A stretch of 64,000 bases of DNA, taken from assembly GCA_030704615.1 (NCBI GenBank), contig CM060731.1:67642001-67706000 (forward strand), read 5' to 3'. The notes under the pieces are model-generated. The model was not told where the DNA came from. It ran no database searches and worked only from the letters and a program-made list of their open reading frames with translations. The position numbers were made by a program, and so were the translations under genes. Origin of the DNA: Takakia lepidozioides (lineage: Eukaryota > Plantae > Bryophyta). Positions 13,781 to 43,924 of the stretch are shown piece after piece (the stretch's first letter is position 1; every line of letters starts with the position of its first letter).

Positions 13781-13781
13781 A

Positions 13782-21026: not shown

Positions 21027-21127
21027 AGATATGGATAATTAGCTTTCAGATAGCTTTCTCTTTTTGTTGAATATCTCTGGCGTCTAGCTTCTCTTTCATC
21101 ACTCATGTCCCATGTCTTTCATTTCTT

Positions 21128-21808
21128 TTAATGTGGCAATAACCAAAACTCTCTTCTGTAATATCTCTCGTATATGCCTGGGTTTCTTTCAAGCTTCAAT
21201 GCACCCTTGGCTATACTAGAAGTCTCCGTTACCATATAACCATATGGCAAACAAGTCTGGAAAGCTGTTCTTGGTGTGAGTTTGATCCACAAAATATCCT
21301 TTGGAATCCAATTCTTTACCAGTACAAGCTCTTCATGCATATGAGTATAAACATTCACCTTTCTTTCCTCCCAGCCTTCAAACTCTACTCGCTTAATGGA
21401 TAGCAATGCTATCACATAAACCAGTGTTGTTCCTCTACAGGCCACCTGATAAATCTTTATCACTCCTTTCTCCAGACCCCACTCAGGGTCAGCATCATGC
21501 ACTCTCTTAAGAATGTTTTCTTTACAACCGTCTGGCAATTCCAAGAACCTCTGAAAGAATCGTTTGGACAATCTTTCCTTCTCAGTTTCACAGGGAATTT
21601 GATTCACATCAAATTCTTTAATTCTCCATCCACCATGATCCCACCAGATGCCTGTAACATCTGGTTGTTCATGACCCAGTTCCCCTGTATGGTCGCCAAA
21701 TGTCGCGCGGCTTTTACTCACCCATCCCTTCGCTATCCGAGGCGGGAACTCCAAGATAGAAGAGTTGGAAATCTCTAAGCACTCAGCCCGCTCAGAACAA
21801 TCAGTCAT
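21128..21808 (-). CDS. Upstream ORF (226 aa) starting inside the 5' LTR and crossing the PBS; unknown function
   Basis: Open frame with its ATG in the LTR; no recognised motif. Confidence 0.4.
   Translation of the reverse strand: MTDCSERAECLEISNSSILEFPPRIAKGWVSKSRATFGDHTGELGHEQPDVTGIWWDHGGWRIKEFDVNQIPCETEKERLSKRFFQRFLELPDGCKENILKRVHDADPEWGLEKGVIKIYQVACRGTTLVYVIALLSIKRVEFEGWEERKVNVYTHMHEELVLVKNWIPKDILWIKLTPRTAFQTCLPYGYMVTETSSIAKGALKLERNPGIYERYYRREFWLLPH
21680..21700 (-). promoter_or_regulatory. Primer-binding site (TGGCGACCA..., possibly tRNA-Arg)
   Basis: TTTGGCGACCATACAGGGGAA directly inside the 5' LTR; tRNA identity is inferred. Confidence 0.7.
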
Positions 21809-22708
21809 GACCTACAGCTAGTGTATCATGGGGGTGTTTCCTTTTTGTTTTCCTTCCCGCATTCATGTTAGCTAGTTACCTTACTGTTGGTATTTAAGTA
21901 TCACTTTGCTTCAGCAATCTATCGGATTCCATCAACTCATCCATTCATTCCACAGCTTCACTCAGATCTCTCTACACAGTGTGAGTATGAAGTATGTATT
22001 AGATTAATATCTATCAAGTATCGGGCTGAAGCCATGGTATCTCTATTCTGCTCTACATTACAACTCTACTTCTTGCATTCAGCAAGTATCAACAGATCGT
22101 TCTCCTCCTACTCCGTGCTCTCCCTTTTTCTGCTCAGAGATGCGCTCTCCGCTTCATTTCCAAGTTTTGATTTCCCCCCGAAGTCCTTCCAGAAGTGCTC
22201 CCAGAAGTCATTCTCCCCCAAGAAGTGATGATTTCCAGTCCTCGCTCTTGGCTTTATCTTCCTACCCGTTGTTCTAACCGTTTCCCTCACTAACCGTCAT
22301 CCGTGAACTAACATGTTCCATTCGCAGATGTTGTTCCCCACAGTCGTTCCCTGTCCTGCTATCCGTTCCCTATGGTCGTGACAGCTGTGTCAAGCTGTGA
22401 CTGGCTGTGTGAAACTGTGACGGGCTGTGACTGGCTATGCGACTGTGTTGGGCTGTGTCGGGCTGTGTCGAGCTGTGACTGGCTGTGCGACTGTGTCGGG
22501 CTGTGACGGGCTGTGTCGAGCTGTGATTGGCTGTGGCGGCTGTGTCGGCTGTGTCGGACTGTGACGGACTGTGACGGGCTGTGTAACCCCCCCCCCTAAA
22601 GTGCGCTGCTGTCACCCCTAAGGCTCCTGTTGGTCTCATTCTGTGCAAAAATTAAGGGTACCCCACAGATCCCGTAAAAGTGCCTAAGTCCCAGACAGTC
22701 CTCTAACA
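21701..22708 (-). repeat. 5' LTR of the Athila/Tat-like element
   Basis: Matches 3370-4300; longer GCTGTG array (about 22380-22585) and a 20-bp insertion. Confidence 0.95.
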
Positions 22709-22813
22709 CCTAGTAGTCTAAGCCATAAGCCGCAACAGGTTCTCTACCTGGTTATCTTGTGGAAAGGGGGATTAGAGACAGGTTTATAATAGGTGTGGTT
22801 GTGAGTTTTCATC

Positions 22814-25080
22814 ATGGAGGTGCCACCAGTTGCTGAGGAGAGTGCCGGTACGAGCACCAGCGATACTAGTGGGTATACAAGACAAGGTGTGCGGTTTAAG
22901 CCACCTTCACCTTCAGTGTCTTTTGAGGAAGGTTCAGACTCAGAGTTAGGAGGATTCTCGCCAAGGGTGCAAGCCATTTTCATGCCATTGTTGTGGGATA
23001 CGATGGAGGAAATGTATGGAGCTACCAAGGGGCCACGTCGGTACTCTGGAGCTGTGGGCACCATTGAGCTTGATGGGATCTTGGACAAGGAGTTGAGGAG
23101 AAGGGTGCGGGATGCAACTCTCCTACAAGTGGACCAACCCACCTTAGCAGATGTGTTTTTGCTGGCAGAGCGGATAGAGCTCAATATGGTGGAGGAGCGA
23201 GTGGTCATGGTGGGGTTTGGTCAGGAGACACAATGAAATGGGGCTCCTAGCCAACAACAACCACTACCCCAACGTGCTCAAGGCAACAAGGGGGCTCAGG
23301 CGAAGCCCAGGGAAGGGCCGAGAGGATCTCAATTGCAGAGGTCACTTCCTTCATTCTTAGGCCAACAACAGTCGGGTGTGACATGTTGGGATTGTGGAGG
23401 ACCCTATGTTAAGAGAGATTGCCCGGAAAGAGGCAAAGGGTCGGCACCGGCACAGCCTACACAACTACAATGTGAGCATTGTGGCAAGTATGGGCATGAA
23501 GAGGCCCATTGTTATGCATCCTGAGCTACGGCCAGGCCAGTTCCAAGGGAACAATGGTGGCCGAGGACGAGGCAATGTAGTCCAGAGAGGAGGTAGAGGT
23601 TGGGGTGGAGGACGTAACCAAAACCAAGGAGCACAGGGTCAGGGTCAAGGTCATGACCAAGGCATGATGGATAGACTTGCCCAGCTAGAGCAACGTCTTG
23701 CTGCCACGGCCACTACTCATGTTGTGTCAGCTCCAAGGCTTGAGGTTCAAGCCCCACCTGCACAACCTCATATGCCTAGGGAAGACCAGATTGGTATTGG
23801 CTTCATGTGTGGAGCCGCACTTGCAGGACCATTGCATGTGGACTATGCAGCTGCTGTCACTCGAACAGCAACGCGTGCTCCTGAGCCAAGAGGAGCGGAT
23901 GTGGATTTTGATCCACAAAGAGGGGAAGCAAGTCGGCAGACAAGGCTTCCACAGTCTTTCACATTGGCTGAGACAATGCCAACTATGCCATCTTGGCACC
24001 CCCTCGCCCAAGTGTGTCAGAAGTAGAGCCACGAGTGTCATTGGGGAGAGTTGGTATGGCTCGGGAAATGCCAGTGGGTGGTGCTGCAAAGCAAAGTGCA
24101 GCCAATACATTGTTGGGGGCGGCTACGGCAATTTGTCAAGCTCCAATGTTTTCTGCCATGACAATTGCAATGTCGGGGATGCGGCCAGCCGCAGTGTTTA
24201 GACTGGCAGCTAGACTCTGTGAGAATGGTGATGCATCGGCACTATCTGCGGGAATAGCGGATCAGTGCATGGATGCCCTGGATTCAAGGGTGAAGACAAC
24301 CACAGCTGCGCCATGGCAAGGAGCAGCTGCAAGGTTGCAAGAGTTGCGAGCTAGACCAGCCGTTGAGCGTAGTATAGTGACTCTTGGGGTAGTCCTGGTG
24401 AACAATCAGGATGGTGTGTTTCAGTTGGGTGGCCTGGCCGGGAGGAGGTATAGGTCACTGCGGGTCTTGTTGGACTCGGGAGCACAGCCATTGATGTTCG
24501 GGAGAGCAGCAATTGCAGGCTTGGGTCTTACATAGGCGGATTTGGAGCCTTGCCCTTTCCAAATTTAAACAAATTTGGGCGGTTCAGAGAAGGCACGAGG
24601 GATTACACGCCATGAGCTCTTCATTCGATTGCAGCCAGATCATCCTATAGATGGCTCTGTCATGAGAGCTAAAGCCATTGTTACGGACGCGATGTCTTAT
24701 GATGTGCTTGTTGGTGGGGCTGTGTTATACCCGATGGGCTATACGTTGGACTTTTGGGAGGAAACGGCATTCTACAGGCCAGAATGGCAGTCAGGGGATG
24801 GTCGACGTGCACTGCTCCCAGTGCGGTTTATTGGGAATGTAGCGGTGGATCATAGGAACATGATGCCCACATTGGCTACATTCTCAGGGGTGGTGGCTTG
24901 GGGTGGTGAGCTCTTGGAGGGCAATAGCCATGCAGATGATAGGCCACCACCTGATGAGGACAAACAATTGGCATACAAGGCTGATTTGCTTCCTCATGTA
25001 TCTGTTCATATTCCACTGTGGGGTACAGTTAGGAATTTGCATCGAGTAGCATGCGAGTATGTGCACCAAGCATGGCAGGG
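22814..25080 (+). pseudogene. gag (two CCHC-type knuckles) and aspartic protease of the outer element
   Basis: CWDCGGPYVKRDC, CEHCGKYGHEEAHC, RGG-rich tract, VLLDSGAQP and YDVLVGG motifs; stops and deletions. Confidence 0.85.
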
Positions 25081-25700
25081 CATGATGCACGATCGCATTT
25101 GTTTTGGGAGATGTTGAGAGTATTGCGTGACTTGCAGACGAGGTAAGTGCAACCTCTAGCCTATATCTTGGAGAATGTTCCTCTTATGGGGGACTCTCGG
25201 GCCAAGGTTATGGCCAGTGTGCATCAGGTGCGGTCTTGGATTGGATCGGCGGTGCTATTGGATGCAGCAGCGGTGGGATCACGAGCGCATTGACCTCGAT
25301 TGTGGTGGACCAATCTTGCACCACCAGAGCTGCTCAAGAGAGCATACGATTCCATTCAACGGCCACCGAATCTCACAGTTGAGGGCATTTTGGACCAAGG
25401 GAGGCAACCACAGAGGGTGCGACATGATGACCGTCCACCTCTAGTGGGGCAACCACGTGCGGCCTTGCCTACGCTCATGAGTTTTCCCTCGTCTCATGCT
25501 TTTCGAGACAATGGTCCTCGGTTGATTTGGGACAGTGTGCTACAGCAATTGGTGGAGCCCAATGCAGATGAATGAGAGCAGGCAATGGGATTTGCCACGG
25601 GCACTACAACTATGCCATCTCTGTCAGAGGCATCACGCCGACATGTGTTGGGTCAAGCAATTGATCTAAATTGCTTGACATAGGTCATTGGTTTGTGCAT
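25081..25700 (+). pseudogene. DNMT3-like C5-cytosine methyltransferase domain (motifs V-X) inside the retroelement pol
   Basis: Frame +1 read through stops: HDARSHLFWEMLRVL..AYILENVP..LLDAAAVGSRAH*PRLWWTNL..EPNADE*EQAMGFATGTT..SEASRRHVLGQAIDLN. Confidence 0.88.
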
Positions 25701-25954
25701 GGCTAAACAACGGAGGTTGCAGACAGTGGTGGCTACTTCTGCACTCCCATTTGGTATTGTATCCCCTCTGCCAACCGGGACGGTTGAGGCAGCGAGTGGG
25801 GCGAGCACATGATCATGGGGTGCAAACACCCATGGCAGATGTGGGATGAGATGCGGAAAAAAAGAGTCATTGGATCTCTCAAGCAGCAATATGAGGAGTA
25901 GGAAGAGCCATACATTGAGGATCAGTTGGAGGCCAAGGTAACCAATGTTTTTTA

Positions 25955-27915
25955 AGAGAGTTCGTAGTGGCATATGCTAGCCGCTCAAACAATGATGCCG
26001 AGACGAAGTATAGTTCCTATGAAGGGGAGTGTCTAGCTGCGGTATGGGCAGTGGCACATTTCAGATGCTACCTCTATGGCACCATTGTCACGGATCACCA
26101 ACCATTGAAGTGGTTGATGGAGTAAGACAAGCTTACAAGGAAGCTTGTACGGTGGGCACTTATGCTTCAAGAATACGACTTTCAGGTGGTGCATCGAGCC
26201 GGTATTGTCAATCGGGATACAGATGGATTGAGTCGTAATCCATGCACAAGCGAGCTTGATGATACTGGAGCTCGGTGGCATGGTGAGACGGATGAGGAGA
26301 TGGTGCCAGGATGGCATGCATCTGCCTTTTTGTGCATCCTAGCAATGGGAGCTCAAGCTGGTCCATCCCATAGCATTGGTCATGTAGATGGTGTGCATGA
26401 CAATCCGGAGATCAGTGAGGAGCTTGGTGGTGCTAAGGATGTGCATGAAGATGCAGCAGTGTTGGCCTACCTTCGTACTAGAGAGACAGCAGCCAGTGTA
26501 ACTGCTAAGGAGAGAGATTAGATCCTACAACAAGCCAAGAGGTTCAAGTGGGAGGGGACTCACCTACTCTGAGTATGGGAGGATGGACGAGTGAGGATTG
26601 TGCCTCATCCAACACAACGAGGCGATTGGTACGCCATGCCCATGAGAAGTTGGGACATTTTGGGGTGCGGCGCACTCATAGTTTGCTGCAAGGACAGTAC
26701 TGGTGGCAGGGCATGCACACGGATGTGCAACAGTTAGTGGCAAGGTGCATGGTGTGTGATAGAGTGCGAGCTTCTTTCAATGCACCTACTCCACAATTGC
26801 ATCATTTACCCATTATGGGTTTGGGCTATCGTTGGCGTCTTGACTTCGCAGGCCCATTGCCACTAACGATTCGCCATAACAAGTATGTGCTGGTGATGGT
26901 GGAACATTTCTCTAAGTGGATTGAAGTGGTGGCATTGCCTGACAAAGCAAGTGAGGGAGCTGCGTATGCATTCTTAGATCGAGTGCTTAGCCGATTTGGT
27001 GCTCCAGCCGAGGTACTCACGGACCAGGGAAGAAAGTTCTTTGGGGAGTTTCAGGCTTTGTGTGAGCAAGCCTTGATAGATCACCGCACTACTTCTCGGG
27101 ATCATCCCGAGGCTGATGGCCTGGCAGAGAGGGTTGTACAAACAATCAAGTGAGGCTTGCGCAAGTATGGCTTGCAGAAGGGACACTTAGGAGATTGGGA
27201 CCTTCAGCTACCTTGGTTGGCCATGGGCTACAGGTTTAGCAAACAAACATCACTTGCCTCGTTCTCACCTTATTTCCTTATCTTTGGCCGAGAGCCAGAT
27301 TTGCCTGCATCTATTCGCAGGGAGACTGCAGTAGTTCTCAACCTTGATGATCCGGATATGTGGACACAAACATGTGCCCAGCGGGCAGAGTTGTTCAAGA
27401 GATTGCCTATGGCTTTTGAGAACCTTGCTATTGCCCAACACCGAGACACATTGAGGTACGCCACTATACGTGGAGGGGGATATCGGCCAAGTGTTCGGCG
27501 TTTCCACCTTGGGGACTATGTGTATCTGCATCAGACAACGCCTACGACTTTGGATGTCATAGCAGGGCGTGTGATTCTAAGGGTCCGGGAGGTGTTGCCT
27601 TCAAGAGTGTTGATTCTGGAGGGTCGAGATGGCATGGTATGGAAGGACCATGTACGCAATTGTGCGCCATGTCACCTTCCACATGTGGATGGGAGGATAG
27701 ATCCCAACCTTGCAGTGGTACCTGCAGGGTTGCGTTGCATGCTATGTGGGCATGCTAGTGGTGCCGCGACCATGTTGGTGTGTGACAAATGCTCAAGGGG
27801 GTGGCACATAGGATGCTTGACACCGCCACTTGAGAAGGTTCCTAGTGTGAATGGTTGTGTCCATGATGCCTTGGACATAGGTAGTGGGCATGACAATGGT
27901 GGAATTGACAAGTGA
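25955..27915 (+). pseudogene. RNase H (C-terminal half), integrase and PHD finger of the outer element
   Basis: VAYASRSNNDAETKYSSYEGECLAAVW, TDHQPLKW, HEKLGHFG..CMVC, LDFAGP..LTDQG..DGLAERVV, CMLC..CDKCSRGWHIGCLTPPL..WLCP*C. Confidence 0.9.
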
Positions 27916-28139
27916 TCCAAGGTCTAGCTGATGGGAGCTCAACGCCATGGATACTTAATTGAAGATCATGGATTGCAGGAAGGCGAGTAACGATGGGGCT
28001 ACTTTTGCACCCGGCCTCTTGATCTATTGACTTTAGATACTGGGACATGTGCGATTGAAGACCAAGCGATGATTTTATTGAGATGGATACTTGTCAGCTA
28101 TCCGGTGTTAGAGGGACCTAATCATCTGCTATAGGGGCG

Positions 28140-28226
28140 ATTGTGGCATAGCTTTCTAGGATTGTATGCTTAGAATGTATGGTGGATAGCGATGTATGTT
28201 GTGGCACGATGCTTAGGTGCACGACA
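28140..28226 (+). repeat. Block B1 (copy B2 at 35215-35301 is the right terminus)
   Basis: 87-bp direct repeat with 4 mismatches, ending GCACGACA; followed by GT and then A2. Confidence 0.9.
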
Positions 28227-28575
28227 GTTGTCATGGTTTTAATCATGGTTAACTAGAATTACCTACTTCTAGTTAACTAGGACATTTTGGATATTTATAT
28301 TTGTATTTTGTGTGTTGGGACTTCATTTGGTCTCACATGCCAAGTGAGGTGTCAAACCTCACTTGGGACATGGGGATGGTTTTCCCCTTGTGAGTGTTGA
28401 GGAGGGCTCATCTTCTTGTAGTTGAGCCTCCATAAGCCTCTCCCACCTCCATAGCTCTAGGTTTTGAGAGGGAGTGTGGTGAGGGCTTTGTAGGGTGGAT
28501 TCCCTTAGCAAAGGTGCCCTTGGCTTGACTTAGTTTATGTGATTGAGTGGATTCATGAGTGGAGTGTTTCCATTG

Positions 28576-31500
28576 TGTCGCGCACCTCACTTCGGTAAGC
28601 TCCCCTTCAAGTCATAGTTACTCGCTTTGATGCGCGCGCCTGACTCCCAACCTGGCCGCCCGGGCCAACTTGGAGCTTCGGCTGCTCACCGGGACATAAC
28701 GGTCCCCCCCTTTGCTTCCCTCTAAACCCTCCACCTAATTGAGACTAGGCGAATTCCCTTTGGTAGATGGCAGTCCGGAACAGCTCCCCACTCTTTGTCG
28801 CTTTCCGGCTCGCTCGCTTACTCACTAGTTTTTGGTCACCAACGGGCTTGCACGTTCTCTCGGGGTTACTACTCCCTATATATACTTTTGTAGCTGTCCG
28901 CGGGGGTTCCACAACCAGCCATGCCATTTTATGGCGAACCACCACGAAAACCCTCGACTCCCGGTGATGAGTCGCGGTGAGTCTTGGCCCGCTCACCACG
29001 GCCCCTCTGGACCGTGATGAGTCCCAAAACTCCCCACGACTCCCACCACGAGGTCTCCGCCCCCATGGTGAGTCCTATGCCACCCCCACTAAGTCCCGCT
29101 AAGCTACCACCACCCCTTGTGGAGCCACCCCCACCGCAACCCGGTGTGCGGGGCTTCCACCTAGTGAGCGCCTCCGCTTCCCTGAGTGCCTTGGCACTCA
29201 AGGGTGCTTCAGCCCCCCATACCTATCGCGTCCGCTGCCCCCACCACAGGGGCAGCCCCTCATGTGTCCCGACCCCCTGCCTCAAGGCAAAGGGCCGCGA
29301 CACACACCCCTACCACAGGGAGTCGATGTCCTCATCAACTTGTCCATTTTGTAGAAACGAACATCCCAAATGTGGCGTCCCACATCAGGAGTTTGTTTCC
29401 GCACCATGGCGTCCCATGGCAAAGAACCAAACCCCACACTTGACTCTACTCTCCACTAGCTAGTTCGGCCGACTTCCTCCAAGTCCCGGCCAAGGGTGGA
29501 GCCTCTCCAGCTCCTCCCAGTGCACTCTTCTTGGCCTACTTCAAGGCCAAGGAACGATCCCCCCGAGGATCGAATCGCCTTACTGCAACAACATTGCTTG
29601 CGATCGCTCATGATGCCGCTTTTGGCATCACCTTGAGCAAGGGTTCACCTGGACCCTCTTTGACTAGGAAGATAACCTTGCCAACCGTGCGCCCCAATCA
29701 CTAACTTGGGTCCGCCTTGGAATTCTGGCCCTGGGTACGGGAACACGCCGAAGCCGCACTACGACTTCGTCCCGAGGCTACACGATTACAGTACGTGAAC
29801 GGAAGCACGTAGCTTTCCATCCGCGTTATCCCGCACTACAAGGCAACCCCTCGGTAGCGCAGTTATAGTACGCCACGCGCCAGGTGCGCACTAGCACGTG
29901 AACTCCCAAGAAGTCGCAAGTTTCCTTTGCCCCTTGGATGGGGGTCACCCATTCGGCACTACGCAAACACCCACGATTAACCCAATTTACCTCTCCCATT
30001 TTTTATAAGCTAGCATGCATTCTACACACTAGCCACCATACCATGCATCACCATTCCAAACAAAATAGGCCGCACAACATTTGGAAACCCATTTCCTTTA
30101 TAACAAATTTTTGTACAATACAAGTTTTTTGTAATCGGATTCCTAAGCTAGCTAAGCCGGGCTAAGCATTCTTTTCCTCCCCACGCTCAAGGTTTGATGT
30201 CCCCATCAACGTTTCCTTTCTCGCTTTTGAGGTCGCCCTTCGAAGCTGCAACCGCCTCGGATGCGTTTCCCATTTCTGAGGCACGCACCCAAGATGCCTC
30301 CACATGATGATAAGCCTTCTATTTGACGAGATACTTCGTTTCTCGGTTTCTGAACCTCCTCGACTTAAGTATTGCCTCCACCCTCGTACTCAGGTTCATG
30401 TTCATGATCCAACAGCATAGGTGGCGGACGCAACACTTGATGTCGATTCGTACGCGCTTCATCTTTGAAGTAAGGCTTCAAAAGGGAGACCTGGAATACT
30501 GGGTGCACCTTGCTGTTTGCCGGCAGCTCCACTTATTCATACACATCCTCATTCATAACCTTTCGAATGCGAAAGGGTCCCCGCATACGGAGGTACGAAC
30601 TTCGGACTCACTTCGGAGGTAGTCGGAAATTCTTGAGTTCTAACCAGACCTCTGTGCCTGCCTCAAACTTCACTTCCCCTATCCGCTTTTTTTTTCCGAT
30701 TCACCCTGCCGTTCCATAACCTTTTTCCTAGCTACCGTTTCCTAGCTTTGGCATGTTGTACTTTGCGAGCTTCAACAAACGCTCGCGTTCTTCAGTCCCG
30801 CCGCTACTGCCGGTTCCCTCAACGTCCTGGGCGGCCCAACTTTGTCGCACCAGAGGTGCTTTTCCATAGACCAATACGAAAGGGAAACTCCTGTTGCGGA
30901 GTGTTCTGTGTTATTATAACAGAACTCTGCCGCGTCTAAGTGTTCCATCCAGTCTGATTGGTATGCCGACACGTAATTCCGCAAGAATTGCTTCACTACG
31001 GAATTCACTCTTTCCGTTTGGCCGTCCGTCGTAGGTCGGAAGGCGGTGCTCATCTTCAGCCTCGTCCCCATCTTCTTCCAAAGTGTCCTCCAAAATTTAC
31101 TCGTAACTTTGGATCACGATCCGAGACAATATCCTTCGGGACTCCATGATGCTTTAAGACGTGGGCGAAGTAAAGTCGCCCTGTCTCCTGCGCCGTTTGC
31201 CGTCTCCTTGGTGGGGATGAAATGGCCCTTTTACTGAACCTATCTCACCACCACCATGATTGCATCGAATCCTTTTGACACAGCGGCATAGCTGTCATGA
31301 AATCCATCGAGACCTTTCCCAAGTCCCCTCTGGAATCGGCAAGGTTGTAACAGCCCCGCTTGCTTTTTGTGTACTCTCTCCGGTTTTGTTGGCATGTGGT
31401 GCATGTCTTGACATACTCCCTCTCCTCCTCCTCCCTCAGTTTGGGCCAGAAATACTCTTTCTTCAAGAGTGCCGCAGTGCGCTTGGCTCCGCCGTGGCCC

Positions 31501-34500
31501 CAAGCGGGCTATCATGGCATTCTCTCAAGAGGCTATCCCTGATCCCTCCCTTCGGCACGTAGAGACGTTTTTTGCTTATACCGGAGCAGTCCATTTTGCA
31601 AGTGGAACTGCGATTTAACCCCCGTCCTCAAGTCCTGCATCACGGATTTTGCCATCTCATCCTTCCGGCAAGCCTTCCGGATCTTCCTTTGGAGCGTCGT
31701 CTCGCCCTTGTACACCAACAAGAGCTGCTGCTTTCTACTTAAAGCATCGGCCACCACATTGTCCCGTCCCAGTTTGTACTGGATATCCGCGTCGAACACT
31801 GCCAAAGTATCTTGCCACCTAAGTTGTTTTGGGGACAACTTGGGCTGCGTGGCAAAATACTTCACCGTGACATTGTCCGTGAACACCTTCACTGGTTGGA
31901 ACCAACATAGTGGCGCAGAGCTCAAGGCAATGCACCACCGCCTTCATCTCTTTTTCGTGCGTCGGCCATCGTCGCTCCACTTCATCAGTTTCTTACTTTC
32001 GTAAGCCACCGGACGTCCATCTTGCATAAGTAAACACCCCAATCGCGAAGTCCGATGCATCTGTATGAATCTCAAACGGACGATCGAACCCCGGGATTTT
32101 CAAGACTGGAGCTTTCGTCATCCGCTGCTTCAATTCAGCAAAAGCTGGCCACAAAATGTGTTCCATACCCAGACTTTGGATTTACACAGAAGGTCCGACA
32201 GCGGCCCCGCGATCTTGGCGAAATTTTCTCACATACTTTCGGTAATAGGAGGCGAGTCCTAGGAAGGATCGCACTCCCGGGACCGAAGTCGGAGGCTCCC
32301 AGTCCAAGATCGCCCTCCACCTTTCTGTCATCCATTTTGATCCCATCCTGTGTAATCACGTGCCCCAGGAACTTCACTTTTGTGACCCCGAATTCGCACT
32401 TTGAAGCTTTGGCATACAGCTTCCCTTCCCGTAATTTTTGGAACACCCTTTTGAGGTGCTCCAGGTGCTCCTCCTTTGTTTTCGAGTACACCAAGATGTC
32501 GTCGATGTACACGATCACAAGTCATCCACCACTCCTGGAAAGGCTGTTCATCACGTGCTAAATGTCGCTGGTGCATTGGTGAGCCCAAAGAGTCATCACC
32601 AAGAACTCATATGAACCATACCTTGTCCTGCACGCGGTCTTCTCCTCATCTCCTTCCGCCACCCGAATTTGGTGATAGCCGGAACGCAAGTCGATCCGGC
32701 TAAAATACTTCGCTCCTGCCACCGATCGAAGAGGTCGTCGATCCTTGGCAAAGGGTACGGTTTTTTTATAGTCACCTTATTCAGAGCCCTGTAATCGACA
32801 CACATCCGCAGCGTCCCATCCTTCTTGTCTGCAAATAGCACCGGGGCTCCGTAAGGTGACTTACTCGGCCGATGTACCCCCTTTGACATTAGATCCTTGA
32901 GCTGAGTCTTTAGCTCGACCAACTCTCTGTGGCTCAACCGGTAGGGCGCCTTGGCAGGCGGTTCCGATCCCGGTATCACCTCAATCTTGTGGTCAACTCC
33001 TCTTCGCGGTGGCAAGCCGCTTGTTAAATCCTCCGGCATCACATCCTGGTATTTCTCCAAAATCCCCTTGATCCAATCTGGGCTCTCGCTCCCCATCGCC
33101 TTCTCCTTTCACTTCTCTAATGTAAAGCAAAAACTGGGGCCGTGTGCCTCCTCCACGGCCCACTCCTTTGCTGACAGAAGGTTTATTCGCCCTCCCACGG
33201 ATTGGGCGTTTCTGACACTCGTAAAATCTCGCCACCATTCCCACATGGCAGCGTGACTACTCTCTTGCGGCCATCTATGACCGCTCCGGATTTGCTCAAA
33301 AGGTCATCCCCAAAATGAGATCCACTCCATCGATCTCGCAGATGGTGAAGTTCTCACGTCCCTCCCAACTCCCCAGTTGAAGGGGAACATCAATCGCCAA
33401 CCTTGTCGCCAACTGTGGTTCTCCTTTGGCAGAACGTACCTCAATAGAGGCCCCCACGTCACTTGTCGGGAGTCCCAGCTTTTGTGCCGTTGCCGGTGTC
33501 ATGAAGGAGTGCGACGCTCCTGTGTCCACCAACAACGACACCTTAGTTCCGGATATTATCCCATCCACGAACAATAACTGACTCCCTTTTCGTAAGGCGC
33601 CAGTTTCCTGATACAACTCACAAGAAAAATTGCCTACCTTGCAAGTCCTGGCGACCACCGCTTCCACCAAGCGACTGATGGTATCTTCCGACAGCTCCGT
33701 GGTCGCCCGAGTCATGTTCAATTGCCGGGGCTTCGTGCACTTCTTGGCCATGTCAACAGCACATTGAAAGCCTGGACATACCCCCGAATGTCATCTGTTT
33801 GCTTCAAATTCCTCATCTTGTCCCGGGCAAGCCAGGACGCGTTGAGGGGCACAAACTGTCTCTTCATCAATTTCTTGAACCCACTCCAGTTCAAGGTTTC
33901 CGGACTTGGACCTCGGTCGTGAAGGCGTTTCTGCCACCATTGTTGAGCATAGCCCCTCAAATAGATGGGAGCCACTTCCACCCGATCCTCGTCACTCAAC
34001 TTGGCCGCCCGGAAGTACTGCTCTAGCTCCAGGAGCCAGGTGTTGAGTGCCTTCCGATTTTGGACGCCCTCGAAGGTGCCGGGTTCCTTAGGCTTCACCT
34101 TAAACTTTGCCTTAGTGGAAGTGGCATTAGCCGCCTTCAACACGTCTTTTAACGTCCCGCCAAACTGCGCCAACAACCCTTCCCAAAAGGCAGCCGGCAT
34201 GGGAGGCATCTCTTGGTTTGTCGGAGCTCTCAAGGATCCTCGGGCTCCGACTCCTCGGATTCCTCCCGCTCTTGAGCGGTCTCGTTTTCGGAAACATGCA
34301 TCGCTTCCTCAAACGGCCGCCTCGGTGACACGTCGCTCCCATCGGGCTCACCGAGATCATCATCTTTTGGGCCATTCCGCTTTCGCTTCGGCTTGCCTGA
34401 CCCCATGATGAGGCCAATCCCAAGGACGATCGCGTACTGAACTCTAAGCTCTGATACCAAGTGTCGCACACCTCACTTCGGTAAGCTCCCCTTCAAGTCA

Positions 34501-35190
34501 TAATTACTCGCTTTGATGCGCGCGCCTGACTCCCAACCTGGCCGCCCGAGCCAACTTGGAGCTTCGGCTGCTCACCGGGACATAACGGTCCCCCCCCTTC
34601 GCTTCCCTCTAAACCCTCCACCTAATTGAGACTAGGAGAATTCCCTTTGGTAGATGGCAGTCCGGAACAGCTCCCCACTCTTTGGTCGCTTTCCGGATCG
34701 CTCGCTTACTCACTAGTTTTTGGTCACCAACGGGCTTGCACCGTTCTCGGGGTTACTACTCCCTATATATACTTTTGTAGCTGTCCGCGGGGGTTCCACA
34801 ACCAGCCATGCCATTTTATGGCGAACCACCACGAAAACCCTCGACTCCCGGTGATGAGTCGCGGTGAGTCTTGGCCCGCTCACCACGGCCCCTATGGACC
34901 GTGATGAGTCCCAAAACTCCCCACGACTCCCACCACGAGGTCTCCGCCCCATGGTGAGTCCTATGCCACCCCCACTAAGTCCCGCTAAGCTACCACCACC
35001 CCTTGTGGAGCCACCCCCACCGCAACCCGGTGTGCGGGGCTTCCACCTAGTGAGCGCCTCCGCTTCCCTGAGTGCCTTGGGCACTCAAGGGTGCTTCAGC
35101 CCCCCATACCTATCGCTGCCGCTGCCCCCACCACAGGGGCAGCCCCTCATGTGTCCCGACCCCCTGCCCTCAAGGCAAAGGGCCGCGACA
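28576..35190 (-). mobile_element. Chromovirus Ty3/Gypsy LTR retrotransposon, copy 2 (same family as 9002-15808)
   Basis: LTRs 28576-29302 and 34462-35190, TSD CATTG, iMet PBS, chromodomain (YEVEAILKS..YLVK..GY..EASW) at about 30170-30400; gag deletion; many frameshifts. Confidence 0.93.
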
Positions 35191-35301
35191 CATTGTGTGT
35201 TCACTTCCATTATCATTGTGGCATAGCTTTCTAGGATTGTGTGCTTAGAATGTATGGTGGACAACGATGTATGTTGCGGCACGATGCTTAGGTGCACGAC
35301 A

Positions 35302-35581
35302 CCTTCCAACGAGGTCCCCCACGAGTGCCTGTACCCAACACTTCACACGCATAGCGGTTCGACTCTCTACAGATCCGCTCGAGTATAGATTGCCTCCAAA
35401 ACAGGTGAAAGAACCAAATAGGACTGGAACCCTTCATGCCCGGGAGGCAGGGACCTGGTTCGGGGGCACTGAAAGCATCTATGTCGCTTACAAAATCGAT
35501 GCCCACTTTTTTTTCCCATTTACAAGGCTTGAACATGTTCTTAAACTCCAGGTCAGGTTCATCAGCACCATCACACTCCAT
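35302..35581 (-). pseudogene. piggyBac-like transposase N-terminal part (continuation of 1-670)
   Basis: SPIWFFHLFWRQSILERICRESNRYA..GGPRWK; removing 671-35301 plus one CCTT gives an in-frame join GGPRWK-ELIVPELRVWIG. Confidence 0.8.
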
Positions 35582-36272
35582 GTCAAGATTCTCCGTATCC
35601 CAATATCCCAGTAATCTCAGTATCCAGTAATCTCAGTATAAGTGGCTCTTAGTTACGCCGGTTTCTGCCGGAGTCTTCTCTCTATTCACGCTTTGCCATC
35701 GTGGCAAATCAATTTCTGATTTCTGACTCGACCCAAAAACGTGTCGCTTCGTCCATTAATGTGTCACGTCGATGCGTCATGTGTCGCGTTCCATCTTATG
35801 GACCAAGCATAGTTAGTATCCCATGTCTCATTTGATTAAATTGAACTAACTAGACTGATGATGTCCCGAAAAAAAATAAAAATAAAAGAAAAACTGGATG
35901 ATAAATACAATCATCAACCCTATCTGTAACCCCATGATCCTGACATCGTGTCTCTCTCAGGCTATGCTTTGACACAAGACGTAAACACGAAACATACCAA
36001 GAGTGATAGTGGGCAGTTTCAGGCCAAGAGGGCATTGGATTCCCTCACTGATCGTAGTGAGCATTTGTGGAAGACTGAGGTGTGCATAGCAATGGGCTTA
36101 TGCGGCTGTCGAAAATTTCAAGAGTTTCAGTGTTGTATCATCATTTGGATATATCCCTAAACGTGGAGTGCCGATCTCTCCTTTACTGCGCTCCATGTTC
36201 ATTTGTTTCCAGATGAGAGCGGATCGGGTCAGTGTCAGAAGAAATTGAGAACTATTTCCAGTTTCCTCAAGC

Positions 36273-38621
36273 ATGGACTCAGCGGTGCGGGGAGAAGTGG
36301 ACATCCGACATATAATCGAGCTTGCCGTGGTCCCAGTGATGAAGGTTCTGACTATGGGTGCGTTAGGGTCCCTTCTAGCACAACCTCGAATCGGTATCAT
36401 TACGCCCGATGCAACGAGGTTACTAAGCAAATTAGTATTTGCACTCTTTCTTCCCTGTCTGATTTTCACAGAGCTTGGGGAGTCGGTAACTCTTTCCAAC
36501 ATGAGAGAGTGGTGGTTCATCCCTGTAAATGTTATGCTGAGCGCGGTTATTGGGTGCATGGTTGGGTACCTTGTGGCCCTAGTTTGCCAGCCACCACCAC
36601 AGTTCTTCAAGTTTACAGTGGTTATGACTGGGATTGGGAACACAGGGAACCTCCCTCTTACCATCATCGGCTCCATGTGTCATGGGCAGTCTCACCCATT
36701 TGGTAGCAAGTAAGTGATGTTCATCTTTTCCTTCACGCATGGGTGATTGGTGGCGATGATTCTGAGTGAGGATTGCTTGAATTTGTCAGGGGATTTTTGA
36801 CACGGTACTTTTTGAAGCATGTACTGTTTTGAGAGTTCGTAGTACTGTTGATGGGAAGTGGCCTCTTGCATTGTCTAAATCAACTATGAAGATTCATAGT
36901 AAATTCTTCTATAAAGACTGTCCGCTGTTAGTTCAGCCTGCCCTGATGCTATTGGCAATTATCACCAGCAAAAGTAGGATAATCTGGTCTCTTGATCTCA
37001 CTTTCATGTTAAATGTGTAACAGGTGTAACCAGACAGGGGTTGCCTATGTGGCATTCTCTCAATGGGTTGCCGTCATCATTGTCTACACTTTTGTGTACC
37101 ATATGCTGGAGCCCCCCCAAGAGTATTATGAGCTAGTTGATGAGGGAGAGGAAGGGTTTGACAAGGAGGAAACGGAGTCAGCTATGCCGTCTGTAACAGC
37201 AGCTGAATGGCCGCAGGTCGAAGATGCTCAAAATGAGGAGTTCCGCACACCTTTACTCTCTCAAATGTTCCGGAACACATCCACCTCATCAAGAGGTAGT
37301 TGCTCTTCCCTCATCCCTACCTTTAGTAACCTTCAATGTACCTGCAGGTCAGGGTCCAGGAAGTTTTGACATAGACAACCTTTACAACACTATCCTTAAT
37401 ATGGACATGGGATCATCGGTAGCCTTGGGCAGGACCTCAAGATACTACAGCCTCTGCAGTCAGACATTGCTCAAACATACGTCAACAATCATCAAACAAT
37501 CAGAGAAAACATGGATAATTGAGGGCTGATTTCCAGCACTTGACAATGATATGTCCAATGCTGGATGCCAACAGGTGTAAGTCACTATACAAGGACAGTC
37601 AGGAGGGGTTTAGGGTGAAAGAGAGAGGGACACAAGCATACCCACAAATTTAAGAAACTGTCCATCCTATTCCTCTCTCAAGAGAGTCAGATATTGAACC
37701 CAGACACTGTCAGCTTTTTCAAACGGCTACAATGACAGTGTGCTTGACTGTTGGCCTCGTACCTGCCTTTTGCACGCAGACAGAGGACTCGGGCCGAAGC
37801 CAGTGTAAATAAGAGCCTCTTCCCCTTTTGGTCCTTTCGTTGGTACACAATCATGGGTTCCAGATATTTCATATTCCAGTGAGATTGATGTGTCCATGCA
37901 TCCAGCTTGAGCTATTGGGTCTTTAATGTTCTTCTTGCTCAAGCCAATTGTAGTCTGTCCTTCCCATCTATCCTTCTATGCTCCCTTACCGATGTTTCAT
38001 CCTTCAGGTAGTTCAATTGATGGAGGGAGCCCAAGAAACGGGGTGCGCTGCCTGACCGAGCATCGGGTGATGAAGAAGATGAGAGTTGTGGCACAGAAAA
38101 CTCCTATTCAGCACATGTTACAGCCACCGTTACTCGCTTCTCTCTTAGGCATAGTTGTGGGGATATCACCTAAGATGAGCTCTATAGTCTTTGGAGAAGA
38201 TGCACCCTTGGGATGGTTCACCGACAGTCTCACTATACTGGGGGCTGCCTTAGTTCCATGTGTTATGCTTGTTCTGGGAGGCACCTTGTCAGGGGGGCCT
38301 GGAATTTCCGAACTGGGCTTCAGGACAACTGTCGGGATTTCTTTCACACGCCTCGTGGTGCTGCCACCTATTGGGATCGGAGTTGTGCTACTTGCATATA
38401 AGCTGGGTATTTTGCCGGAGGGTGACCGGATGTTCATGTTCGTACTTCTCTTGCAGCATACCATGCCAACTGCAATTCTGTCAGCAGCGATGACAAGTTT
38501 GCGTGGCTATGGTGAGCGAGAAGCATCAGCTTTGTTGTTTTGGCAACACATATGTGCAGTGGTTTCCATTGCAGTGTACATTATGATTTTCCTCAGAATT
38601 ATTTCAACCATTTACAGTTGA
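36273..38621 (+). CDS. PILS: PIN-LIKES auxin carrier (membrane transport protein); exons 36273-36709, 37024-37295, 38008-38621; 440 aa
   Basis: LLSKLVFALFLPCLIF, GIGNTGNLPL, GVAYVAFSQW, VPCVMLVLGGTL and LLLQHTMPTAI motifs; GT-AG introns in matching phase give 1323 nt. Confidence 0.93.
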
Positions 38622-39489
38622 TCATGGATTAAGTGGCTGCGAGAAATCAGTTGGAAGGCTAACTGTAAATCTCCGCCGCAGTTCTTCATGAGAGAATAAT
38701 AGAGAGCCACTGCGAACAAATCCCTCCATTGACTTTAGGGTTAGCAGGGCTATCAACTGTGCAACAGGGTATCAATCAGGTTATCAACAATACACACCCA
38801 ACGAATTGTAGAGTATGAAAAAAATAAGACCTCAACTGGGTACAGTACCTAAAAATGAGATCAAATTGGTTTCCGGTATTATGAAATTGAAAATCCGGAA
38901 CTGGCTCGATAATGAACTGAAGACAATAGGAATAATGTAAGAACTTAATGGACGCCTGTGATTTGAGTGATCTGATAGTACTTTCGCGGGATTCCTCCGG
39001 CCCGGGGAGGAGGCTGTCAAATCCTCCCCACCCTCGGTTTCAGTAGTGTAGAGGAGGATTAGGGTGTCATCGTCGCCATGTCATCTTAGACACGTCATCG
39101 TAGACATGTCATCGTCGTCGTGCCACGTCACCATAGATATGTCATCGTCGTCATGCCACATCATTGTCATCAACTTTTTTGAAACCTGCCCAAAATGCCC
39201 GAAAATAACCTGGAAAGGTGTGTTGCAGCGCGGAGGGGTTTCACACACCGATCTAGAGGGAGATACTACATGGTGGATGCGCCACAACCTTTTTGCATTT
39301 CAAAAAGGGGACTGGCTGCAGTATGAGGATTCCAAGCCCATTACGCTTTACAATCCACTCCTAGGACCAAATACGTCGAGGAGAGATTCAATTCCCAGAG
39401 ACCCCACTTTGAATAAATCAGATGCAACGACACATGTGCAACTGGCAACATTCTCGCTTACAGATGTGCAGTTGAATAAGCAGGATGTG

Positions 39490-40085
39490 CTCAGCATGGA
39501 CGTGGCAGAGAGGCTTTTGATATCTATGATCAAATGCACCGGGAAGGGGTCAAGCCTGACATTCATTCGTGTTCTCAATGCATGTGTCAGCTTACAATCC
39601 CTGGAGAAGGGCAGAGAGGTCCGCGCTGAAATAATCGAATCTGGAATTGCACCATATGTTAATGTGGAGAATACCCTCATTGATATGTATGACAAGTTTG
39701 GGAGCGTGAACGATGCACATCAAGTGTAAATATAGCTCAACCAATGTGGTCTCATGGAATGCCATGATCACAGGATATGCTCAGCGTGGCAAATTTTCAA
39801 CAAGATGGCTAATTGAGATGTGGTCTCATGGAGCAAATTACCAGAGGATATGCTCAACATGGTTGTTCTATGGAGGCTCTTGAAATGTATGAGCAAATGC
39901 GACAGAAAGGGGTGACTCCTGACAGGGTCACATTCACTTGCATTCTCCATGCATGTAGCAACTAAGGAGGCCTGGAAAAGGGCAAAGAGGTCTTGCTGAC
40001 ATTGTCAAATCTGGAATCGTGCAAGATATCATACTCGAGACATCCCTTGTTGACATGTATGCCAAGTGCAGGAGCATGAAATACG
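39490..40085 (+). pseudogene. PLS-class PPR repeat fragments
   Basis: TFIRVLNACVSLQSLEKGREV..NTLIDMYDKFGSVNDA; further VVSWNAMI and LVDMYAKC remnants with stops. Confidence 0.8.
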
Positions 40086-40519
40086 TTTCTCATGGTGCGC
40101 ATCCATTGCAGGATATGGGTTATATATTCAAAACCCTCACAGCATTTGAATGAACATGTTCAAAAGAGATCCACCTTCTTCCTGTCTTCATTCATTAGTA
40201 GGATCTCAGGGCTGGCCTTCACAGTGCTCTTTTCATAATTACACAAAGTAAGAGAATTGCTCTAAAGTACTACCATACAGGTTCTTTATCCGTTTCTGTG
40301 ACTGTCTTCATAGGTTAGACTGCTCTGACGGACTTTGATCCGTGAAAACTAAGAACAATCTGAAGTACAGAAAGGCAGAATTATCAGTGAAGCGGACCTT
40401 CTGTCCTAAGTAGAGTGCTTCAGGTCAAAACAAACAAAGACATGAGGTCAAAAGGCCGGCATTTAATCACATAGACATTTATCTACTCCCAACAGCGATA
40501 GGCTTCCTAGAGGGCAGGG

Positions 40520-42380
40520 AGAAGAAGAGAGAGAGAATGTACTCATAAGACTTTGTTTGCCGTACCCTTGTTGCCACATACAATACTAAGTGTGGGTCAG
40601 ACAAGTACCCTGCCTTATTCATCAGCCCAGCCAATCTTTGCAGCTCAGCATGGATTTCCTCAATTTGTGGATACAGTTTGTCTTCTACAACAAATATATG
40701 CACCCAGTTGTCACCTCAATGCAGCTGCAACCTGCCTCCTCTGTTATCCATCGCTTCTCTCATGTTAGCTTTATCATCCCACCTGCCAGCTGCAGTATGT
40801 ATGTTTGATAGTAGAACATAAGCTGCAGCATTCTGTGTATCACATTTAAGAATATATTTTGCCACGCGTTCTGCTCACTTGACATCAGAATGAAATCTGC
40901 AAGCACCAAGCAATGCCCCCCACACTGAAGCATCTGGGTTGATTGGCATTTTCTTAATGAAGTCCTCTGCCTCATCCAATCTCCCTGCCCGTCGAAGAAG
41001 GTCCACCATGCAGCCAAAATGCTCCACTTCCTGCAATCATCGCACTCCATGACACCACATTTCGCTGAGCCATGTTGTCAAAAACCTGATGGGCATCCTT
41101 CACGCTCCCACATTTGGCATACATGTCAACAAGGGCAGTCTCAAGATTAATTGTATCTCCATCAATTCCAGCTTTAATGATGTCAGCATGGACCTTTTCC
41201 CCCTGTTACAAGACTCCTAGACTGGCACAAGCGTAGAGTGCGCAAGTGAAAGTGACCCCGTTAGGCGTCACCCCTTCTTGTTGCATTTGCTCTAGATCGA
41301 AAGACTCCACCTCACATCCATGCTGAGCATATCCTGTGATCATTGCACTCCATGAGACCACCTTTCATTCAGCCGTACTGTCAAACACTTGACGGCATCA
41401 TTCATGCTCCCACATTTGGCATACATGTCAACAAGGGCAGTCTCCAAATTAAGATAAGACTCAATTCCAGCTTCGATAATGTCAGCCTGGACTTCTTTGC
41501 CCTTTTCTAAGTCAGTTAGGCTAGCACACGCATTGATAACAGAAATGAATGTGACCCTGTATGGCCTTACCCCTTCCTGTTGCATTCGCGCATAGATCTC
41601 GAAAGCCTCCCTACCACACCCATGCTGAGAATATCCTCCAATTATAGTGTTCCATGATACCACACTTCGTTGCGCCATACTGTCGAACACTTGAGGGGCA
41701 TCCTTCATACTCCCACATTTGGCATACATGTTAACAAGGGTTTAACATGTGGGGTCAATTGAATCACATGCCTCAAACCAGATACCATAAGATAATCGAA
41801 TCTAATTCTTGGAAGAATATCCGTCCATGAATTGACCCTACTGCAGCATCCTTGATCAACTTGCTCTCTCTTTGTCTCTCTCACATACACACTATGCTGA
41901 ATGATTTTTTGATGGTTTAGACCACTGGAAGAAGCTGCCTCTGACACTTGTATACAACCCTGAACTTGTTCCAGTCCGTGACATGGGTAAGGATGACCTG
42001 AAAGGCCTACCTACCCTCGACACTAGACTGAAATTCAAACTCAGGGTGAGTCTACCTTTGAACAATAAACAAATGCAGGGAGGAAAGGGATATGGTAAAT
42101 GCCCAATGTGCTGGCAGCCTGAAGACAATATCCATTTTCTGATACATTCGCCAGGGTATTCTCACCAGCGAGTGAGTGTTTTCAGGAACATCAAGAACAT
42201 GTTTTTGCACCCCTGTAGTTGAATGTCTCAAAGATTACTAGATGATATCTGCTGGAATCCCAGTTTTGATGATATGAGCATGAACTTCTTTGCCCTGTTC
42301 CAGGACCCCTAGGCTGGCACACACATTGAGCATGCAAATGAAAGTGACCCTGTCGGTTGTCACCCGCTCCTCTATCATTT
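40520..42380 (-). pseudogene. PLS-class PPR gene with E/E+ extension, fragmented
   Basis: MYAKCGSMKDA..VVSWNTIIGGYSQHG; E+ HIFVVEDKLYPQIEEIHAELQRLAGLMNKAGYLSD; frameshifts; no DYW tail seen. Confidence 0.85.
41750..42220 (+). mobile_element. Probable non-LTR retrotransposon 3' fragment inserted in the PPR pseudogene
   Basis: KFKLRVS..CPMC..ED.IHFLI..P.Y resembles a LINE C-terminal CCHC; interrupts the PPR repeats. Confidence 0.45.
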
Positions 42381-42905
42381 ATTTGTCTGTCTTGAAAGCT
42401 AGGCTCAAAAGTAGGTAGTTCTGCCTGGCTGAAGTGCCTTCACTTATTTGCTGCCTCTGGAGTGTCGTGGCAGACGCAAGAAAGAACTTCAAGGTCGGCA
42501 TGCACTCAATGGGTGTTCATGAGTTCCCTAATTTGATCCATCATCAGGTCAGCGATCTCAATGCTGTGTTCCCATCGCTTGTGAAGAACTTTATGCTTCT
42601 ACCTCATTTTCATTTCAGTCCATACTTGCTGGAAGGTTTCCCCTTTAAATGGCTTTGATTAGGGGTTCATATACAGATACAGACCCAAACTTGTCTTGGA
42701 CATGGTCATATCAGATACATGTGAATCTCTTTGTGACAGAAACAAGATGATGAACTTGATGTTTTTGCTGTTACCTATAGTGTTACCCTTGCTAAGAGTT
42801 TAGCTTTGAATTTCTGTTGGTGGGAGGAAGACTCATAGAGGGCTTGTTTAATCCATCATATAGCCTGATTTAGGCATCATCAAAATGCTAGTTTTGGAAT
42901 TCCAG

Positions 42906-43251
42906 TTGGAAAGGAATGTAGAACTGAGGATGGACATGTTTGAACTTTATGCAGAGGGGATCAAGTCAAGCAAACAGGAAGAAGTCATTTGTGACGCTCG
43001 GCTACGTGCAAGAGCATCCCGAATCCACCGAGGACAAGGTTACTGCCCACATACTGAAGGTGGTTGACAGCAACATGCAAAAGTTAGTTTGGGAGCTCCT
43101 CCACCCGTCCGCGGTCCCCAAAGTCTGCAAGAATATGCATTTCAACGTTGCGCGCATGATGCACATAGTCTTTAAAAGAACAGACGGTTTCGCAACACTC
43201 ACAGAGCTCGCGCCTTACGTGAAAAAAATTCTACCTGAGCCAGTGTCATAG
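42906..43251 (+). pseudogene. Orphan last exon of a diterpene synthase
   Basis: EHPESTEDKVTAHI..VPKVCKNMHFNVARMMH..DGF..VKKILPEPV; paralogous to 63333-63683. Confidence 0.8.
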
Positions 43252-43924
43252 AAAGGACCTGTGGTGCACCAGCATTCTCTCTATGCTTCAGTTGAGGCAC
43301 AGGATTAGCGCAACGTCGGACGTGCATTTCCACAGTTCTTGCATATGACCCTTGTGGTCTAAGTTAGTATTGATCAGCTTCTCCGTTTACAATCTTCAAT
43401 CCGAAGAACAAATTTCAATTCAGCAATGAGACGACAGCCTCCGCATGTCGAGAGCCATAGGTCGGCCCTGAACGGTAAAGTAGAAGCCACGGCACGAAAG
43501 GCCCCTCCAACGGTGGAGGAGACAAGATAGGGATGGGAGGCAGAAATGAAATGCTGTTTTGTAACTTAATATAGGTACGCTTCATGTTTCCGTTTTTTTT
43601 TGGCCCTGCCTGTGCAGAGCCCACTAAAGTAGTTACTAACTTAGTAAATTGGTAGTAATAAGAAGTCGGGAGGAGAGCCCTATGAGTCTCAAGGCGGGCC
43701 CCACCCTGGTGGACCATTGCTGGTGGACCCATGCTGGCCCACACATGTCACCCCTAAAGAAACCAGCAGGTGACACCTCCCAAATGGGCGCCTCCCAAAT
43801 CCTTGTGTAGCTTACTATTATCCCCTTTTTCATTCCTGGAGCATCCGTTAATGCACAAAGCCATGCAAACTTGGGGGCTATACTTCTACTCATTTGAAGA
43901 TGGTTTAGGTTCCAAATTTAAGCC

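Follow-up and report, generated by a model that had tools for sequence, protein, structure and literature searches.

The window analyzed here, a stretch of 64,000 nt of Takakia lepidozioides DNA (assembly GCA_030704615.1, contig CM060731.1, positions 67,642,001–67,706,000, forward strand), contains a retrotransposon, designated element Z, whose repeated sequences are split between its two ends and an internal joint. Two identical long terminal repeats (LTRs) were not present at the ends of Z: the left end has the order A-x-C and the right end the order A-link-C-D-B, with A, B, and C denoting blocks that each occur twice. The parts of Z and the target-site duplication (TSD) that encloses it are the following.

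667–670: left CCTT, the 4-bp TSD
671–739 (+): A1, left terminus of Z, starting with TGTCATGG, with a hairpin of 12-bp stem and a TATA-like run at its end
740–1109 (+): x, 370 bp in place of the 21-bp link of the 3′ unit
1110–1276 (+): C1, the likely R region
1277–3369 (+): 5′ leader of Z, with tandem repeats at 2285–2459
22714–25954 (+): end of the leader, gag, and protease, stopping at a deletion breakpoint
25955–27912 (+): RNase H, integrase, and PHD finger (Pfam), with one in-frame stop and one frameshift
27913–28139 (+): 3′ untranslated end, finishing in the G-run TATAGGGGCG
28140–28226 (+): B1, internal copy of the right terminus, starting (AT)TGTGG and ending GCACGACA
28227–28228 (+): 2-nt spacer, GT in the window copy
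28229–28575 (+): A2 (28229–28297), 21-bp link (28298–28318), C2 (28319–28484), and the initial part of D, with CATTG, the 5-bp duplication made by the nested element X2, at its end
35196–35214 (+): end of D and D-to-B link, variable from copy to copy, its G-run absent in the window copy
35215–35301 (+): B2, right terminus of Z
35302–35305: right CCTT

Comparison of the window with itself yielded identities of 98.6% over 70 nt for A1 (670/671–739) vs. A2 (28228/28229–28297), 96.4% over 167 nt for C1 vs. C2, and 95.4% over 87 nt for B1 vs. B2, and word-7 BLAST gave E-values of 2e-24 for the A pair and 6e-61 for the C pair. The six blocks and their coordinates had been proposed beforehand from the letters of the window (hereafter, the original prediction), and these identities of 95.4–98.6% bear them out. 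The absence of B from the left end, part of the same prediction, was confirmed by word-7 BLAST, which found no copy of B or D anywhere in 600–3369 (best other match, E 0.14). The joint in the window reads ...GCACGACA-GT-TGTCATGG..., i.e., right end, 2 nt, and left end, as had been proposed, and the single CCTT duplication expected around A1 to B2 was read directly. At this one locus, the termini of Z are of the TG..CA type (TGTCATGG...GCACGACA) with CCTT on both outer sides; a 5-bp TSD was ruled out by the mismatch of TCCTT vs. CCTTC. The start of A agrees with the reverse complement of the B end in 6 of 8 bases, and the start of B in 4 of 8.

Two parts of the predicted picture had to be revised. 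The stretch 28140–35301 had been taken as one repeat structure, which did not hold since 6615 of its 7162 bases belong to the foreign element X2; with X2 and one CATTG removed, A2-link-C2-D-B2 becomes a contiguous unit of 453 bp, referred to as S. The region between C1 and B1, described as coding, does contain the genes of Z, but element Y (3370–22708) with element X1 lies inside it as well. Taken together, the A, C, and B pairs show 11 differences over 324 positions (3.4%), slightly above the 2.3–2.6% found between the LTRs of each element nested in Z; this would be expected if the members of all three pairs had been identical at the time of insertion of Z. Folding of the joint region as RNA gave z = −2.2, mostly attributable to A's own hairpin (folded on the A2 copy), with no B-A pairing of note, and no match to Rfam was obtained at gathering scores.

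The gag gene of Z starts with the ATG at 22815 and encodes two CCHC knuckles within 23237–23521, and the protease motif LLDSGA lies within 23972–24532 (both read in translations). RNase H was recognized at 25919–26122 (Pfam, 4.7e-17), the integrase zinc finger and DDE core at 26509–27150 (Integrase_H2C2 PF17921, 9.3e-17; rve PF00665, 1.2e-14), and a PHD finger in the integrase C-terminus at 27154–27912. The Pfam matches and the termini as read agree with the original prediction that a DDE integrase, TG..CA ends, and a TSD occur together on an A..B-A..B layout. Relatives align with Z only from their residue 394 on, at window base 25955, and contigs of other copies depart from the window at exactly 25954 and 25958 (agreement 0.88–0.93), which indicates that the reverse transcriptase (RT) of Z was deleted and that the copy is dead. 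RT, missing in this copy, is encoded by most of the longer polyproteins among the listed relatives. No tyrosine recombinase was found among the scanned open reading frames (ORFs) on both strands of Z. The cytosine methylase domain PF00145 had no match in Z, the part of pol that could hold it being deleted in this copy. Z is thus a dead, heavily interrupted copy of a Ty3/gypsy-type family.

Other copies of this family were followed in contigs from four public runs, of which X1, X2, and X4 (labels of runs, not of elements) derive from one sample and X5 is a plant metagenome from another study. This is a very abundant family: 23336, 12284, 6503, and 623 contigs of the four runs matched 3.2 kb of Z. 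Around the joint, a stretch of 231 bases was covered by 1611, 557, 694, and 52 contigs. The second spacer base (28228) was C in 51, 25, 29, and 3 contigs of runs X1, X2, X4, and X5, corresponding by depth to 121558/124134, 75362/77271, 74390/75811, and 186.6/186.6, i.e., ~98% or more. The common joint, B-GC-A, forms the perfect 10-bp palindrome GACAGCTGTC, and the T of the window copy may have arisen from C by mutation of a CHG site. Many separate contigs from two independent samples span the joint, with GC in place of GT as the usual spacer. The B-GC-A joint is family-wide and not private to the window copy.

Behind the end of B (28226), loose ends were found in 38, 25, 39, and 2 contigs of the four runs, with agreement of 0.38, 0.40, 0.37, and 0.68 and median loose lengths of 255, 151, 255, and 75. 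On the other side of the spacer, loose ends lay before 28229 in 11, 10, and 13 contigs (agreement 0.40–0.43) and before 28228 in 5, 8, and 2; counted at A's first base or one base earlier, they numbered 11, 15, 21, and 2 in the four runs. The continuations disagree with one another, and these loose ends represent flanking DNA rather than a conserved primer-site or polypurine continuation. Insertions of the family begin with A and finish with B; flanks in other copies abut the same two ends that the joint brings together. At the start of B, run X1 had 9 contigs with loose ends at 28140 (median loose length 41), short, partly conserved, and resembling D-to-B links, and none occurred among the listed groups of runs X2 and X4. 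With no comparable flank group before the start of B, copies do not begin there.

B was followed in the contigs by GC-A or by flank, with no conserved primer-binding continuation past it, and in the listed groups A was preceded only by B-GC or flank. Copies with two complete A-C-D-B LTRs, which the original prediction had named as the contrary case, were accordingly not seen. D is joined straight to B in other copies, through joints that go back from 28553, 28578, or 28579 to 28140 or 28141, and the internal 3′ sequence of Z also precedes B in five contigs of run X2 and one of X5 (before 28100 to 28212). Depth was high over the 21-bp link (28298–28318), indicating that x (740–1109) is not the common form of the family, and S units flanked on both sides were present. 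A metagenome scan with a 16-base stretch of the B end returned 19 loci, none homologous to Z, and viral contigs gave no match to the Z integrase or to an alignment of 15 of the 120 listed relatives.

Three further elements, all of the Ty3/gypsy type, are nested in Z.

3370–22708 (−): Y, enclosing X1, with TSD CCTAG (3365–3369 and 22709–22713)
9002–15808 (−): X1, inside Y, with TSD GGAAC and an LTR pair 97.4% alike
28576–35190 (−): X2, unrelated to Z, with TSD CATTG and LTRs of ~730 bp, the pair 97.7% alike

The ~730-bp repeat was found four times in the self-comparison, as the LTR pairs of X1 and X2, which belong to one family; X1 encodes gag, RT, RNase H, and integrase, and its proteins match X2 by tblastn. 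The LTRs of Y (~0.93–1.0 kb, at 3370–4300 and 21701–22708) are 97.6% alike. X and Y both have a purine or G-run directly before the 3′ LTR, CA, 2 nt, and TGG... past the 5′ LTR, and 5-bp duplications. The primer site of X1 and X2, TGGTATCAGAGC, is of the initiator-methionine type and lies two bases inside the LTR; the corresponding motif had 5 matches in the window vs. 5.1 expected, comprising X1, X2, and three chance-level sites only. Without X1, Y measures ~12.5 kb. Downstream of its RT, Y carries three long ORFs (337, 863, and 355 aa) at 4342–9012 (−), without a Pfam match except for an rve tail in the third (E 0.007, under the Pfam cut-off). Runs of a 10-bp, GCTGTG-rich unit occur within Y and its LTRs (7957–8176 and 22381–22583), and a stretch of ~180 bp is inverted between X1 and X2 (10595–10772 vs. 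30343–30531, 91% identity, opposite strands).

The following genes adjoin Z in the window.

73–460 (−): remnant of a PiggyBac-type transposase (DDE_Tnp_1_7 positions 104–215, split over two frames), to the left of Z
36249–38498 (+): membrane-transport gene of a family including auxin efflux carriers, starting ~950 bp right of Z

The Mem_trans domain was matched in three ORF pieces (4.4e-33, 5.1e-07, and 8.2e-25), pointing to at least three exons. With a transposase remnant on the left and the transporter gene ~950 bp away on the right, coding continuity across Z could not serve as proof of a single insertion event. Further along, repeat arrays of ~124 bp and ~100 bp were present at 54484–55270 and 50037–51071, inverted repeats at 39482–41740, and a 375-bp repeat at 42898–43270 and 63325–63702.

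Where reverse transcription of Z might be primed was assessed from the sequence next to the blocks. A G-run resembling the polypurine tract of element X stands directly before B1 and not before A2, where no purine run exceeds 3. It reads TATAGGGGCG in the window and is longer by two G in most other copies (variants at 28132/28133); this G-run is suggestive of a polypurine tract. At 1315–1334, 40 nt past C1, CA is followed by a TGG-initial 18-mer, a candidate primer-binding site. The D-to-B link of other copies fell into three joint classes with differing letters between D and B, and loose ends occurred before 28134 and 28140. One of these classes (6 contigs of run X2 and 5 of run X4) contains CA, 2 bases, a TGG-initial stretch of 18 bases, and the start of the G-run motif, the order to be expected from the end of a repeat followed by copies of a primer site and of a purine tract and then by the start of a repeat.

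The explanation that we favor, with moderate confidence, is that the repeat generated by reverse transcription in this family is permuted, B-GC-A-C-U5, and that integrase cuts the palindrome inside this repeat, between GACAG and CTGTC, and not the repeat ends. Transcripts would begin beyond the TATA-like end of A and terminate past the downstream C, the RNA having the form R(C)-U5-primer site-gag-pol-G-run-B-GC-A-R(C). Ordinary reverse transcription of this RNA would produce B-GC-A-(link)-C-U5 at both ends, the repeat starting after the G-run and ending before the primer site, and the ends used by integrase would be the two halves of the palindrome within the repeat. The two DNA ends would be linked to each other, giving a two-repeat circle or a tandem, and the variable D-to-B link may be the place where they meet. 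Opening of one palindrome by integrase and insertion with a 4-bp duplication would then yield A..coding..B-GC-A-C-D-link-B, while cutting of both palindromes would free the 453-bp unit S. The downstream partial unit would supply the 3′ R to the next transcript. The original prediction had regarded the joint as a built-in circle junction that templates both ends. This view was revised: the joint is more likely an uncut integrase site, and the variable joint resembling that of a circle is the D-to-B2 link.

Several observations weigh against the internally cut repeat. The 5′ part of the window copy mismatches its 3′ part, with x for the link and a sequence after C1 that is unlike D, so that this copy fits no single round of reverse transcription and must be either two-template (chimeric) or later rearranged. 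Right ends were about twice as numerous as left ends in the contigs. Purines make up 9 of the last 15 bases before B1 and likewise before A2, only the G-run differing between the two, and the candidate primer sites have no transfer RNA gene in the window to match (0 found), the initiator-methionine primer motif being absent from Z. To our knowledge, the sole known case of internal cleavage by an integrase is that of HIV-1 in vitro. As to the contigs themselves, three of the four runs share one sample, their depth is not equivalent to copy number, and the listings cover 24 of the 193 loose-end groups and 32 of the ~2930 pieces. Four of the listed pieces span the joint, with 16–87 letters on the B side and 24–60 on the A side, and none of the four has 31 on both.

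The mismatch between the two parts of the copy would be accounted for if Z were a head-to-tail pair, the alternative already raised in the original prediction, which we consider unlikely. A long unit L (A..gag-pol..G-run-B) and a short, internally deleted unit S (A-C-D-link-B), each a complete transposable unit, would have been linked as a by-product of two successive minus-strand transfers over co-packaged RNAs, or of circle recombination, and inserted by their outer ends. S is collinear with L, both containing A, C, and then a stretch of ~20 bases with a G-run before B, and the differences between the sequences after C1 and C2 and between x and the link are those expected of different templates. 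One CCTT duplication surrounds both units with none for each, and S also occurs as a unit flanked on either side. However, a lone A..B without a terminal repeat would not be copyable by the ordinary route, and the pair would still be needed; the spacer is constant, with GC in ~98% of the depth; and a Klebsormidium relative has the same A-coding-B-A-B order according to a figure legend (PMC5890265), which suggests a standard form rather than an accident. Z might also be an ordinary LTR element with S as its LTR, in which case a master copy would have passed on B1 as a leftover piece of tandem LTR and most of the 5′ LTR would have been lost by rearrangement. The contiguous A-link-C-D-B of many contigs and the visible rearrangement of the window copy (RT deleted, x for the link) would fit, and a 4-bp match such as CCTT arises by chance in about 1 in 256 cases. 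Joints between B and a primer site would then be expected to be about as numerous as B-GC-A among distinct contigs, and they were not seen, nothing but GC-A being conserved after B (agreement 0.37–0.40 in 25–39 contigs). As A2 has no purine tract before it and A is preceded by B-GC or flanks only, we hold this option to be improbable.

Another reading is a very small LTR consisting of B (~85 bp, TG..CA), with A as the primer side and the G-run as the polypurine tract, in which an autonomous and a miniature element in tandem would share B1 and the leftmost B would be lost. The G-run directly before B, the 2-nt spacer after B, as past the LTRs of X and Y, and the restriction of what follows B to GC-A or flank are in line with such an arrangement. 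Flanks would be expected at the start of B as often as at its end, but they were found at the start of A (11–21 contigs per run) and at the start of B in at most 9 contigs (run X1, short), with none in the listed groups of runs X2 and X4. Moreover, the left end of the window copy, next to its duplication, is A, which has no TGG at its beginning, and the start of B agrees with its reverse-complemented end in only 4 of 8 bases; we judge this reading very improbable. An origin through the tyrosine-recombinase route of PAT, Ngaro, and TOC1, with the enzyme acting in trans or its gene lost, or an assembly artifact, can hardly be credited. Those elements are described as having the same A1..B1-A2..B2 layout (PMC4157794), but the scanned ORFs of Z contain no tyrosine recombinase, and Z instead combines an integrase of the DDE type with TG..CA ends and a TSD of 4 bp; an artifact of this record is contradicted by the presence of the joint in contigs of an independent study. 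Two other arrangements were rejected or given less weight. S on both sides of L does not agree with the window copy, which has no left S, nor with the joint depth, which was roughly that of the 3′ internal end, and for a double insertion the spacer is too short (2 nt) and constant.

The integrase-PHD protein of Z had 136 matches at E ≤ 1e-5, the best with 76% identity in Marchantia, and its relatives include Marchantia, another liverwort, Klebsormidium (48% and 55%), and chlorophytes. Among the 120 relatives listed, 7 contain a cytosine methylase domain. One of these 7, from Klebsormidium nitens, combines the methylase with RT, RNase H, and integrase and is 55% identical to the Z integrase C-terminus over 58% of the query. 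The combination of integrase and C-terminal PHD finger recurs in relatives from liverworts, a charophyte, and several green algae, and part of these polyproteins contain a cytosine methylase as well. The label "Chlamyvir" for PHD-bearing Gypsy elements was dropped, as the paper checked defines that clade by chromodomains, with the PHD finger unmentioned. By its protein sequence, the Z integrase-PHD belongs to the lineage of KnitGypsy-Dnmt3 of Klebsormidium nitens, of which the legend to Fig. 4c of de Mendoza et al. (2018; PMC5890265) states that the repeats are those of a DIRS element and the domains those of Gypsy; the DIRS arrangement is written A-coding-B-A-B in that paper.

KnitGypsy-Dnmt3 is a close parallel to Z, sharing a Gypsy polyprotein of the same lineage and the A-coding-B-A-B order (PMC5890265, as far as its legend and related passages go). 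The two differ in that KnitGypsy-Dnmt3 bears a methylase, whereas Z has no methylase match, the relevant part of pol being deleted. The permuted layout is a trait of the family and probably also of the lineage. The passages of PMC5890265 on the element give no sequence-level account of its joint, termini, duplication, or mechanism. In literature searches, the name "KnitGypsy" was returned from a single paper only, and the papers listed in further searches contained no description of the layout or of a mechanism, the sole printed mention found being that one figure legend; the layout has thus been in print once, for an alga and without explanation. More tentatively, it is possible that the whole streptophyte and green-algal clade of PHD-integrase Gypsy elements does not insert its linear complementary DNA but joins the ends and has its DDE integrase reopen the molecule at a conserved internal palindrome, with a rotated provirus A-coding-B-A-B, an S unit that spreads alone, and competence for transcription provided by the downstream partial unit.

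Compared with canonical Ty3/gypsy elements such as X and Y, Z has the same CCHC gag, DSG protease, RNase H, H2C2-DDE integrase, TG..CA termini, and short TSD, but it lacks identical terminal LTRs, has its purine run before B, no primer site after B, and a duplication of 4 bp vs. the 5 bp of X and Y. Both the definition of LTR retrotransposons and their detection by software rely on two identical terminal repeats, the ends of which are also the ends of integration. A very abundant family to which this does not apply would be annotated wrongly, with S taken as a solo LTR and the body left unclassified. Dimers of transposable elements formed by double insertion likewise consist of two units of one family in head-to-tail orientation; in the passages available, their spacer is described as locus-specific and of the length of the target duplication (PMC5932611), whereas the spacer of Z is 2 nt long and constant (GC in ~98% of depth) vs. 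a 4-bp duplication. In PAT, Ngaro, VIPER, and TOC1, the repeats are described as A1 - coding - B1-A2 - B2, with B1 adjoining A2 downstream of the enzymes (PMC4157794, in the part available), and Z shows the same A1..B1-A2..B2 split repeats. Those elements have a tyrosine recombinase, in contrast to the DDE integrase of Z with its H2C2 and PHD fingers, and the DIRS order is characterized by the absence of a TSD, whereas Z has the 4-bp CCTT, TG..CA ends, and terminal inverted repeats matching in 6 of 8 bases.

The palindrome itself has a counterpart in the two-LTR circles of retroviruses. HIV-1 integrase cleaves its own palindromic two-LTR junction internally in vitro, according to the abstract of PMC1905944, and in the circle, as in Z, the palindrome is formed by the joined recognition ends of integrase. 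The retroviral circle is regarded as a by-product whose junction is not found in the provirus, whereas the palindrome of Z is inherited inside the copies. If the proposed mechanism holds, an internal palindrome would be the normal substrate of a retroviral-type integrase, so far known only as an in vitro side reaction, and there would be a route by which the split-repeat layout of tyrosine-recombinase elements could arise on an integrase element. Such a mechanism, if true, would constitute a third integration logic between those of LTR elements and DIRS elements.

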